NCBI GenBank assembly: GCA_039815185.1 | Contig: JBCBZT010000080.1 | Span: 1-25,605, forward strand | DNA length: 25,605 nt | Reading direction: 5' to 3' | Source of the DNA: Cyanobacteria bacterium P01_A01_bin.123 | GTDB taxonomy: Bacteria > Cyanobacteriota > Cyanobacteriia > Phormidesmidales > Phormidesmidaceae | Part shown: positions 1 to 3,000 of the stretch, one piece after another | Position numbering within the stretch: the stretch's first letter is position 1 | Layout: each line of letters starts with the position of its first letter | Program-made: the position numbers

Positions 1-3000
1 GATTCAAACATCGTAAAGGGGAGTGGTAGATGCACCCTGATTAAAGTCTTAGCTCCGGCTAGGGCTTTTTTTTTACCCATTCATCCGGAGCTGGTGATTC
101 AAACATCGTAAAGGGGAGTGGTAGATGCACCCTGATTAAAGCTCTGGCTTCGGCTGGGGCTTTTTTTCTTTGCCCCTATCGTTTAAAGCACATCACAGTT
201 GTCTGATTCCAGTCATGGCGCTCCCAATCAAGCACAATAGGATTAACTAATGACTTTCCCCCTGTGGCGATGCCCATTCTAGAAGCCGACAAGATTTACC
301 TATTCAGTCAATTCGCTGAGTTTAACCAGCCGCCAGACGAAATCTTGGCTGAACTGGGTTATCAATGGACAATTCAACCCCTTTCCTTACCTAGCTACAG
401 CGTTCCTAATCTCTCCGAGTTCCAACACTCCTTAGAACGGCGTATTCAACTCACGCCCCTCACAAGTGAGCAGGCACGTCGAGAAACCTTGGTTTCTCCA
501 ATCTTGTTTCGAGTCGTTGAACAGTTGAATTTGCGCCTTAACATTGAGTATCCGGTTTCTGGTAAACGGAGCAGAGGCACCTTAGACTACCTAATTCGTG
601 GACAAAAAACTCTCCTAGTCATCGAAGCGAAACGTGACGATCTGACTCGTGGCTTTACTCAACTCGCGGTTGAAATGACTGAATTAGGAGACTGTTACGG
701 TGTGATTACCACAGGTAACATCTGGCAGTTTGCGCAACTGACGGGTACCTTGATTACCCAAGATCTGAATCTATATCGAGTGCCCACGGATTTATCAGAC
801 CTCATTAGCGCCCTACTTAGCATTCTCTCGAATCGCCAAGATATAGAGAACACTCACGAAATGATAATTTCGTAATCGAGGCCATACGTTTGTCGCAAAT
901 TGCAGGTGTCGTGGTCGGTGATATTGGTATCACTCAGTTCTAGATTGAAAAAATCGATTTGATCCTGCTCAAATAGGGGGCCAGCGTGCCAGGTGCCGAC
1001 TGCGAGCTTGATGAAGCAGTTGCCAGGGATAGTAAAAGCTTGAATGGCGTCTACTTGAGGGCAGGGGGCTGCTCCAGGGGGCGCGACAGCCATCAGCCAG
1101 GACTGGCCGGCCATCGCGCCTAAACATTGGGTACAGCGCTGGTGTCGCGTAATTTTGTGAAAGCTCCGCCCCATGCGTTGCAGCTGCATGATGTAAAACC
1201 GGGGGGTGCCTTGGGATAGGTCTAGTTGAGCATCGTTGGTGTTAAAGGCTTTACCGTCTGAGTTTGGAAAAATCACCTGTCCAAACGGGGCAAAGTTATC
1301 GGTGCTAATGGGCTGAGCCCAGAGTTGCTTTTGGGTCGAGGTGGGAGCCATGGCGATTGCAGTGAGAAGAATGTCAGAGCATTATAGCTTTGACCCCATT
1401 ACATTAGGTGGTGCTGCATATCGCTGTACCGTCGGGCAACAGAAGCCATACGCCTCACGGCTGCACAAGCATAACGGCAGTTGTCAGATCTTAGAAGACT
1501 GCAAAAAAAAGCCCCTCTGTCAAACACCTGTGCCATGCTAAAAAGTCATGCTGAGACAAAGGACGCGAACTCATGGATGACAAATCAATGCTGATGATTC
1601 CGGGGCCTACCCCCGTTCCAGAACAGGTACTGCTGGCCCAAGCCAAGCATCCCATTGGCCATCGCAGCGGCGAATTTTCCCAAATCATTGCCGAGATCAA
1701 CACAGCCCTCAAATGGTTGCACCAAACCCAAAATGACGTGCTCGCGTTGGCCGCCAGCGGCACGGGGGCGATGGAAGCAGCCATCATTAACTTTTTGAGC
1801 CCAGGCGATCGCGTGTTGGTCGGCAGTAACGGCAAATTTGGCGATCGCTGGGCGAAGATCTGTCAAGCCTTTGGTCTCAACACTGAAGTGATTACGAGTG
1901 AGTGGGGTAAACCCCTTGATCCTGAAGCCTTTGGCAGTGCGCTCACCGCCGACACTGGCAAAGCCATCAAAGCAGTTATTATCACCCATAGTGAAACCTC
2001 CACCGGCGTTTTAAATCCCCTCCAAGCGATCGCCCAGCATGTCAAAGCCCACGGCGAAGCGTTGACCATTGTGGATGCAGTCACCAGTCTGGGGGCCTAC
2101 AATCTAGCCATTGACGAACTGGGGTTAGACGTGGTCGGCTCCGGTTCGCAAAAGGGCTATATGATTCCCCCAGGATTAGGCTTTGTGTCGGTTAGCGAAA
2201 AAGCCTGGGCCGCCTATGAAAAGGCGACGCTACCCAAGTTCTATTTCGACCTGAAAGCCTACAAGAAAGCGGCTGCCAAAAACAGCACCCCGTTTACGCC
2301 ACCCATCAATCTCTACTTTGCCCTGCATACGGCGCTGAAAATGATGCAAGCCGAAGGGTTAGACAGCATCTTTGCCCGCCACGATCGACAAAAGCGCGCT
2401 ACCCGTGCTGCGATGAAAGCCCTCGGTCTACCGCTATTTGCCAGTGATGAGGCCGCCAGTCCAGCGGTAACCGCCGTCATGCCCCAGTCAGTCGATGCCG
2501 AAAAAATTCGCTCGACTGTGAAAAAACGCTTTGACATCGCCCTCGCGGGTGGACAAGATCACCTCAAAGGCAAGATCTTCCGCATCGGTCATTTGGGCTT
2601 CATCAGCGATCGCGATATTTTAACCGTCGTCAGCGCTATCGAAGCCAGCTTGATTGAGCTGGGTGATGACACTGTCACGCCAGGGGCAGGCATTGCAGCA
2701 GCCAGTTGGGTGTTGGTTGGGTAATTTAGGCGATCGGAAGGGCGCGATTAAGGATCCTGCGGACACGCCTTCGCGAACGTGTCCGTACAGAGGGGTATCT
2801 TACGCGTTGGCGATCACGCTGGGCTGTTTAGGCCAATCGTTTCCCCCACAGGATCTTGATCTAGCAGAGATTCGAGTGAGCGCTGGAGGAGGAGGAACTG
2901 GGGGCTATAGCGATCGCGGAAAGCCAAGTCGGAGATATCAGTACGTTGAATGATACGACCGGGGCGATCGCCAATCACAATCAAATGCTGACCTAGCAAA

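Follow-up and report, generated by a model that had tools for sequence, protein, structure and literature searches.

Tandem NsiR1 small RNA genes with DIF1-type promoters in a cyanobacterium that most likely forms no heterocysts

At the very start of the analyzed window, a stretch of 25,605 nucleotides from the genome of Cyanobacteria bacterium P01_A01_bin.123, reside two tandem genes for the small RNA NsiR1, each 50 nt long and both on the plus strand. In a cmscan search, positions 119-168 match the NsiR1 family RF02399 with 54 bits (E 2.9e-08) and positions 24-73 with 48.7 bits (E 6.3e-07), both over the gathering score of 39 and both spanning model positions 1-60, and the identity of the two genes is thus confirmed. 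The first gene (copy 1) consists of a 5′ core at 24-40, a terminator hairpin at 43-68 and a U run that reaches position 73; it folds with -16.4 kcal/mol (z -2.14), and its hairpin coincides with a terminator-like site at 43-68. The second (copy 2) has the same organization, with the core at 119-135, the hairpin at 138-163 and a U run to 167, and its fold (-16.2 kcal/mol, z -2.07) likewise includes a terminator-like site at 138-163.

Upstream of copy 2, direct reading of the plus strand reveals the sequence TCCGGA at 84-89, which corresponds to the DIF1 motif and -35 element of sigma-HetZ promoters. It is followed after 17 nt by a -10-like CGTA at 107-110 (consensus TGNA), which supplies a G at -11 and an A at -9 and lies 8 nt before T119. 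The promoter of copy 1 is truncated by the contig start, such that only its 3′ part (1-23, read in the same way) is present; this includes a CGTA at 12-15 but not the -35 element, which falls outside the contig. Positions 1-23 are identical to 96-118, giving a tandem repeat unit of 95 nt, and the segment 1-168 is likely to be the terminal part of a tandem array in which each NsiR1 gene is self-contained. Among contigs from four public DNA runs, one of 6.3 kb joins the window at position 75 with a different upstream flank, which was not found in the genome assembly. Because the run contigs diverge upstream of position 75, the array probably extends past the contig edge or begins just outside it.

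Three further NsiR1 genes are scattered elsewhere in the genome, at C54:4800-4861, C113:49116-49166 and, on the minus strand, C101:46479-46543, with scores of 49.9-52.5 bits against the gathering score of 39. Together with the tandem pair (on C17), these make up the five RF02399 matches over the cut-off, in agreement with the five copies reported in the initial annotation. The 17-nt core TGGTAGATGCACCCTGA occurs exactly five times in the 8.09-Mb genome, once in each copy and with flanks that differ between copies, compared to a chance expectation of approximately 0.001 by our own arithmetic. Folding and terminator scans concur with the anatomy of the family: the invariant 5′ sequence UGGUAGAUGCACCCUGA with its small 5′ hairpin is followed in every copy by an 11-pair terminator hairpin and a U run, consistent with the earlier description of a shared 5′ core joined to copy-specific terminators. 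Where bases differ between the tandem copies, the pairing of the terminator is nevertheless retained.

The promoter features are shared by the scattered genes. In the four copies whose upstream sequence is long enough (copy 1, with its gene only 23 nt from the contig edge, is left out of this count), a motif ends 29 nt before the core, exactly as had been noted initially. Three of these motifs are TCCGGA and one, on C54, is TCCTGA, and they occupy -35 to -30 if transcription starts at T119 and its equivalents. The published sigma-HetZ consensus is TCCGGA-N16-17-TGNA-N7-9-T, with the -35 element numbered T-35 to A-30 (PMC13342950). When sequences were compared with this promoter class (TCCGGA with 1-2 mismatches, a 16-17 nt spacer, TGNA, 7-9 nt and a start at T), copy 2 was found to conform, with TCCGGA-N17-CGTA-N8-T. 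G-11 and A-9 are present in four of the five genes, the element on C113 being shifted by one base, and the first base of TGNA in NsiR1 promoters is A or C rather than T in heterocystous and non-heterocystous groups alike. A promoter scan of window positions 1-1000 found no sigma-70-type promoter. In Anabaena, a HetZ ChIP-seq peak (peak 832) spans nsiR1(1-12), and the nine promoters from which the sigma-HetZ consensus was defined include one of nsiR1 (SI of PMC13342950). The genome sequence supports the assignment of these loci as real NsiR1 genes with predicted DIF1/sigma-HetZ-type promoters. A point against this assignment is that TCCGGA as such is not commoner in the intergenic DNA of this genome, where 103 of 809 sites (12.7%) fall within 12.5% of the bases.

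The regulators expected to act on such promoters are also encoded. HetR is present (NF009718, 542.8 bits versus a cut-off of 489), as is a HetR-like paralogue that scores 398.9 bits, below the same cut-off. The hetZ gene, which was located through a published primer sequence, lies at C99:15093-16196, and its product aligns over 395 residues with the HetZ of Nostoc punctiforme at 64% identity (E 7e-161); a second HetZ-family gene, of the HetZ′ type, resides at C92:221263-222384 and has 52% identity to Nostoc HetZ. Other routes to hetZ were unsuccessful: gene pairs of DUF3038 and DUF4335 are not hetZ and patU, paralogue clusters and a glycosyltransferase candidate were rejected, and upstream-gap and motif filters did not locate the gene. 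Directly behind hetZ is a patU-like ORF preceded by a perfect HetZ-type promoter sequence (TCCGGA-N17-TGAA), and upstream of hetR is a patX-like ORF with five RGSGR motifs, preceded by TCCTGA-N17-CGTA. The genome further contains hetF (C115:132537-135164) and nifH, so that hetR with its paralogue, hetZ and, from the nif cluster listed initially, nifH are accounted for. No GGGN5CCC site of the HetR type occurs within 1 kb upstream of hetZ, and the step from HetR to hetZ is thus not seen. A search in which the positive controls worked found no HetP-family gene in the genome, including the HetP-like alr3234 type that represents the second known target family. The assembly contains no 16S rRNA gene.

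The association of NsiR1 with HetZ extends far beyond this organism. Within its own family, Phormidesmidaceae, RF02399 exceeds the cut-off in 150 of 151 genomes, with 1-12 matches each, reproducing the counts given initially, and the single negative genome is 82% complete. In a sample of 151 genomes from the class, 91 have both NsiR1 and a HetZ-family gene, one has HetZ only, none has NsiR1 only and 59 have neither; in other words, NsiR1 is found in 91 of 92 HetZ-positive and 0 of 59 HetZ-negative genomes, and the tallies per family are identical save for one genome. The promoter is similarly constant. Outside records with names of heterocystous organisms, the -35 motif is situated at 28-30 nt in all 132 copies with an exact core. 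When copies are grouped by record name, the 131 labelled non-heterocystous show conservation of C-33 (0.98), G-31 (0.86), G-11 (0.94), A-9 (0.95), A-7 (0.79) and A-2 (0.91), and the same columns are conserved in the 73 labelled heterocystous, with G-11 in 99% and A-9 in 100%. It is supported on these grounds that the predicted NsiR1-HetZ module is widespread in many non-heterocystous lineages, and the initial view that it is not tied to heterocysts holds at the level of genome sequence. Leptolyngbya sp. PCC 6406, Phormidesmis priestleyi ULC007 and Microcoleus vaginatus are among the named non-heterocystous organisms whose genomes match NsiR1. The distribution also suggests that the pairing of NsiR1 with HetZ is older than heterocysts.

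In the 1.5 kb upstream of hetF, an NsiR1 core is found in antisense orientation in 4 of 4 heterocystous genomes, 1 of 1 ambiguous genome and 7 of 21 named genomes of non-heterocystous organisms; in none of them does a core near hetF share its strand. Because this antisense linkage recurs in several non-heterocystous genera, it points to hetF as a possible ancestral target of NsiR1. In the genome studied here, hetF is unlinked to NsiR1: the 1,037 nt of its upstream region that were inspected contain no core and no antisense tandem array, and the tandem pair is instead at a contig start. The hetF leader contains a weak potential pairing site at -23 to -7 (-18.4 kcal/mol, rank 225 of 7,597, z -1.6), which is not conserved in relatives. 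Pairing of the 20-nt NsiR1 5′ segment with 7,597 start regions yielded a best hybrid of -26.0 kcal/mol, and the best values for five shuffled versions were -23.6 to -27.6 kcal/mol; since the best hybrid is no better than the controls, no target can be named from a single-genome scan. Besides hetF, a CHASE2 adenylate cyclase at C12:16548 is a candidate. A role of hetF as a conserved trans target was also considered and is not supported by the leaders of 21 non-heterocystous genomes (z -3.2 to +1.3), the exception among hetF leaders being that of Symploca (z -9.3), a cis-antisense case.

Taken as a unit, each NsiR1 gene would comprise a HetZ-type promoter (-35 TCCGGA, a 17-nt spacer and a -10 nGnA, with transcription beginning at the T of UGGUAGAUG), some 18 conserved nucleotides at the 5′ end and a copy-specific Rho-independent terminator, and would give rise to an RNA of 50-65 nt. 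We infer that these units are expressed from the predicted start sites, and the most likely route, given that the genome encodes HetZ, is transcription by RNA polymerase carrying HetZ or its paralogue. Once the HetR/HetZ circuit is on, this polymerase would transcribe all of the copies, and the invariant 5′ segment of the RNA would then pair with mRNAs and so mediate its action.

The most serious alternative, although a rather unlikely one, is that the NsiR1 promoters are read mainly by the HetZ′-type paralogue (C92:221263-222384) or by another sigma factor, in which case NsiR1 would not indicate whether the canonical HetR-HetZ circuit is active here. This reading draws support from the second gene itself, 52% identical to Nostoc HetZ, and from five class-sample genomes that retain NsiR1 although no HetZ-family match of theirs scores high (best E 1e-114 to 1e-121). 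In the Anabaena hetZ4-201 mutant, moreover, nsiR1 is not down and is in fact listed as “up” although the ChIP peak falls (SI of PMC13342950), which argues that HetZ is not the sole requirement there; the leaky phenotypes of hetZ mutants have been ascribed to HetZ′, which is said to back up HetZ (PMC13342950). However, the -35 and -10 columns observed here are those defined for HetZ itself, and HetZ′, according to its description, is another HetZ that shares this promoter class; transcription by the paralogue is therefore a variant of the HetZ explanation more than an alternative to it.

A second alternative, which we consider improbable, is that the host is not truly non-heterocystous, or forms some other specialized nitrogen-fixing or patterned cell type, and that NsiR1 is tied to differentiation after all. 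The genome is a metagenome bin, whose non-heterocystous status derives from taxonomy and from likeness to named non-heterocystous genomes, and nifH, hetR, hetZ, patU, hetF and patX are all present. This full core circuit is sufficient to start patterned differentiation in Anabaena (PMC13342950). Against this possibility, the genome falls outside the family sample drawn around a named Nostoc, and the N-terminus of its HetF is 59-62% identical to those of named non-heterocystous genera but 50-53% to those of heterocystous ones. Its NsiR1 copies (50-65 nt) are of the short type found outside heterocystous-named records (median 53 nt, versus 61 nt inside them), and the search for a HetP-family gene found none. 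To our knowledge, heterocysts are confined to Nostocales. The host thus most likely makes no heterocysts, and the label “heterocyst-specific” cannot then apply to its NsiR1. It is more improbable still that the genes are silent relics, left over from an ancestral system and retained by chance, as the unlinked hetF and the lack of a convincing target in the scans might indicate, since an exact core in five copies with differing spacers and terminators, terminator pairing preserved through base changes, near-universal presence in the family and promoter columns conserved in 131 copies would not be expected of relics.

Similar comparisons can be drawn with known systems. As in Nostoc/Anabaena sp. 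PCC 7120 (Ionescu et al. 2010, cited in PMC9045159 and PMC4030482), the RNAs belong to RF02399, have the invariant 5′ sequence and an intrinsic terminator, and are encoded by multiple, partly tandem copies with TCCGGA at -35 and G-11/A-9 at each; the layout differs, with 12 copies in one array in PCC 7120 and two tandem plus three scattered copies here. Unlike in PCC 7120, the sequence after nucleotide 18 is not conserved here, the genes are not beside hetF, and there is no HetP-like target gene. Features by which NsiR1 is otherwise recognized are a tandem array upstream of hetF in antisense orientation, induction under nitrogen stress, dependence on HetR and expression confined to differentiating cells. 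The same two-part promoter described for DIF1/sigma-HetZ (PMC13342950; PMC7377430) is predicted at NsiR1 and patU in this genome; HetZ has been shown to recognize it only in Anabaena and in E. coli equipped with Anabaena components, and here recognition is predicted from sequence. The occurrence of the RNA family in filamentous cyanobacteria without heterocysts is partly in print already, and the novelty in this respect is limited: 11 non-heterocystous genomes are marked as having NsiR1 homologues in Table S3 of Brenes-Alvarez et al. 2016 (PMC4734099), and a 2021 paper reports an NsiR1-like RNA of 57 nt, RNA162, detected by RNA-seq in Limnospira indica PCC 8005 (PMC8400943). The table row and passages concerned record presence alone, with no mention of promoters, HetZ or hetF linkage. 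In addition, a paper from 2024 predicts a DIF1 promoter for patX-hetR of the non-heterocystous Leptolyngbya sp. BL0902, a strain with genetic tools (PMC11298460), for which the TCCTGA version before patX-hetR is the counterpart here.

The function of hetR, hetZ and patU in filamentous cyanobacteria that lack heterocysts is a question acknowledged in recent work (PMC12669612; PMC11298460). Published links hold that NsiR1 inhibits hetF translation, that HetF degrades PatU3 and that PatU3 inhibits HetZ. Combining the three, NsiR1 could conceivably close a negative feedback loop on HetZ via HetF and PatU3, an idea that we favor but hold only tentatively: HetZ would make NsiR1, NsiR1 would lower HetF, more of the anti-sigma factor PatU would then persist, and HetZ would be damped. 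It is possible, though doubtful at present, that NsiR1 is an ancestral output of sigma-HetZ, common to all filamentous cyanobacteria, and forms with HetZ, PatU and HetF a feedback module that predates heterocysts. In Nostoc, no reporters of this circuit are known that are shorter or stronger than the NsiR1 promoters (PMC4030482). Because NsiR1 is always accompanied by HetZ and retains its promoter in lineages without heterocysts, expression of gfp from a native PnsiR1 would report the timing and the cells of the circuit, providing a handle on when and where HetR/HetZ is active in such strains. Should the ancestral feedback module exist, the NsiR1 promoter would mark, in non-heterocystous filaments, a so far unseen cell subset or state in which the HetR/HetZ circuit fires.

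Two NsiR1 genes lie in tandem on the plus strand of the window, at 24-73 and 119-168, scoring 48.7 and 54 bits, respectively, against RF02399 (gathering score 39) with the whole model covered. The window is contig C17 of an 8.09-Mb, 133-contig genome in which five matches exceed the cut-off. The exact 17-nt 5′ core likewise occurs five times, the next-nearest core match having two mismatches; the tandem pair and the five copies of the initial annotation are thereby confirmed, and every feature it described is present where it was placed. The repeat unit of the array is 95 nt, and window positions 1-23 are identical to 96-118, so that the contig start falls within the promoter of copy 1. 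All five RNAs are predicted to fold alike: a 5′ hairpin of three pairs keeps most of the core single-stranded and is followed by a terminator hairpin of 9-18 pairs and a U run. Several stem positions vary between the tandem copies, yet both retain the same 11 pairs.

The upstream neighbor of the array is absent from the assembly. A 6.3-kb contig from a public run, which may be the source of this DNA, joins the repeat at window position 75 out of another upstream flank, and short repeat contigs in the same run exceed their flanks in depth (window 75-165); the copy number of the array may exceed two. Adjoining the array is an ORF of no family (264-875), and downstream, at 854-8609, is a series of genes of nitrogen-scavenging type, encoding a ureidoglycolate-lyase-like protein, a class-V aminotransferase, an NMT1-type ABC transporter, and a sensor kinase in which an amide/urea-type periplasmic binding domain is combined with GAF and HisKA-HATPase. 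The 1,687-aa signaling protein encoded on the minus strand at 13940-19003 combines GGDEF and EAL with multiple PAS and GAF domains.

Upstream of copy 2, on the plus strand, TCCGGA occupies window 84-89, exactly -35 to -30 relative to T119, and is followed by a 17-nt spacer and by CGTA (107-110), whose G and A fall at -11 and -9, with the RNA start a further 8 bases on. This promoter agrees with the consensus TCCGGA-N16-17-TGNA-N7-9-T, numbered T-35 to A-30, which PMC13342950 gives for HetZ-bound promoters. The three remaining non-tandem copies carry TCCGGA or TCCTGA at an equal distance from the core, with unlike spacers, so the fixed placement noted initially holds for copy 2 and these three. 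No sigma-70-type promoter was found in window 1-1000, and TCCGGA shows no overall enrichment in intergenic DNA of the genome. A sixth, NsiR1-like gene (C115:170558-170610; L139:3559-3611) scores 31.1 bits, below the RF02399 cut-off of 39, and has its own terminator and a core with two mismatches. It has no TCCGGA upstream; GGGTTTCACCC at -38 to -28 matches GGGN5CCC, the pattern reported for HetR sites, and CATACT lies at -11 to -6. This gene may be a variant driven by HetR or sigma-70.

Searching named genomes for the exact core yielded at least 122 loci and at least 212 cores, which are uninformative on conservation of the core itself because they were selected by it. Two Chamaesiphon bins are among the matches listed, and the titles include Phormidesmis, Leptolyngbya, Microcoleus, Symploca, Crinalium, Spirulina, Geitlerinema, Drouetiella, Stenomitos, Alkalinema and Nodosilinea, which we take to be non-heterocystous genera. 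Among the matches listed, a hexamer with at most one mismatch to TCCGGA is found 28-30 nt upstream of 132/132 cores from records not named heterocystous, a group that includes unnamed bins, some possibly heterocystous, and of 72/73 from heterocystous-named records; the odd one out has two mismatches, and in this latter set two additional cores have too little upstream sequence to check. It also precedes all three cores of a Plectonema record and neither of two chance core matches in non-cyanobacteria. Both groups conserve the -10 columns G-11, A-9, A-7 and A-2. Median NsiR1 length is 53 nt outside versus 61 nt inside the heterocystous-named records, and outside them the sequence beyond position 18 is not conserved.

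The distribution of NsiR1 closely follows that of HetZ. A repeat count reproduced the earlier figure of 150/151 genomes of the window's own family with RF02399 above cut-off (1-12 matches per genome), the sole negative genome being 82% complete. In a 151-genome class sample, NsiR1 occurs in 91 genomes and a HetZ-family gene (E≤1e-20, with a query that also catches the HetZ paralogue) in 92: both in 91, HetZ only in 1, NsiR1 only in 0 and neither in 59. Five genomes have only a lower-scoring HetZ-family match. Since related genomes are not independent, the family count is fairer: both are present in 21 families and neither in 13, and the per-family and per-genus tallies agree save for one genome (G380, with HetZ and no NsiR1 match).

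The regulators reported initially are also present in the window's genome: hetR on C26 (542.8 bits; equivalog cut-off 489), a HetR-like paralogue on C93 (398.9 bits, under that cut-off), and hetZ at C99:15093-16196, with 64% identity to Nostoc punctiforme HetZ (the Nostoc query was found via a primer printed in the supporting information of PMC13342950). A HetZ paralogue (C92; 52% identity to the same protein), hetF (C115:132537-135164; 48% identity to the Nostoc gene) and nifH (C29:90945-91754; 466.9 bits, cut-off 394) accompany them. Immediately 3′ of the hetZ stop, a perfect HetZ-type promoter, TCCGGA-N17-TGAA, precedes a 359-aa ORF (promoter and ORF at C99:16209-17310; L181) that matches no Pfam family and, by position, would be patU; its first ATG lies upstream of the predicted transcription start, so a later start codon is probably used. 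Upstream of hetR, at -744 to -261, is a patX-like ORF (L134) that carries five RGSGR motifs rather than one and is preceded by TCCTGA-N17-CGTA at -750. Two results count against a simple picture: the lack of intergenic TCCGGA enrichment noted above, and the absence of any GGGN5CCC HetR-type site from the 1 kb preceding hetZ. At C82:44444 (L133), a palindrome resembling a HetR site, AAGGGGCTTAACCCCTA, precedes a 112-aa ORF, after which come a DUF3038 and a DUF4335 gene; C59 has a second such pair, and neither pair is hetZ-patU. No HetP-family match was found in this genome or three other non-heterocystous genomes by a search that was positive in a Nostoc and in the named non-heterocystous genome of Phormidesmis priestleyi ULC007 (L143; 112.5 bits, cut-off 45).

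In the best-supported reading, each NsiR1 unit would be transcribed by HetZ-RNA polymerase, and its invariant 5′ segment would pair with mRNAs. In Anabaena, according to the supporting information of PMC13342950, a HetZ ChIP-seq peak spans nsiR1(1-12) and an nsiR1 promoter is among those defining the HetZ consensus; the same table lists nsiR1 as 'up' in the hetZ4-201 mutant, and the paralogue HetZ′ probably shares its transcription there. NsiR1 inhibits hetF translation (PMC9045159), HetF degrades PatU3 (PMC9457339) and PatU3 inhibits HetZ (PMC13342950), which together would form a negative feedback loop.

In Nostoc, the NsiR1 array lies upstream of hetF, with one copy antisense to the hetF leader (PMC9045159), whereas such linkage is absent from the window's genome. 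Orthologues of hetF were found in 26/28 named genomes; an antisense core lies ≤1.5 kb upstream in 4/4 heterocystous genomes, in the Plectonema genome and in 7/21 non-heterocystous genomes (P. priestleyi ULC007, Drouetiella, Symploca, FACHB-502, Alkalinema, Crinalium and Hormoscilla), and a same-strand core in none of the 26. The linkage thus predates heterocysts. Pairing in trans with the genome's own hetF leader is weak and lacks conservation, and a genome-wide hybrid scan performed no better than shuffled controls. A CHASE2-adenylate/guanylate cyclase gene (C12:16469-18521; L147) is preceded by TCCGGA-N17-TGTA, and its predicted leader has a perfect 10-nt complement to NsiR1 nt 5-14; its orthologue in Leptolyngbya sp. 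PCC 6406 (56% identity) also has GGTGCATCTC upstream, without TCCGGA. This gene is a candidate target only.

NsiR1 was described as occurring in heterocyst-forming cyanobacteria (Kopf and Hess, 2015; PMC6596454). Table S3 of Brenes-Alvarez et al. (2016; PMC4734099) gives homologues in 38 genomes, 27 of them heterocystous, marking Trichodesmium IMS101, Arthrospira PCC 8005, Oscillatoria PCC 7112, 6506 and 6304, Microcoleus FGP-2, Spirulina PCC 9445 and, by column count, Crinalium PCC 9333, Geitlerinema PCC 7105 and Leptolyngbya PCC 6406 and 7375. Limnospira is reported to express an NsiR1-like RNA (PMC8400943), hetR, hetZ and patU3 are well documented in non-heterocystous filaments (PMC12669612), and a DIF1 promoter is predicted for patX-hetR of Leptolyngbya BL0902 (PMC11298460). 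The window feature is real and was correctly read; it adds one more member to a known RNA family, in a lineage already on record for it. In the open-access NsiR1 literature, the promoter, HetZ co-occurrence and hetF linkage were not found discussed outside heterocystous strains. What is moderately new is that the HetZ-type promoter is universal, that co-occurrence with HetZ is strict and that the linkage to hetF is ancestral.
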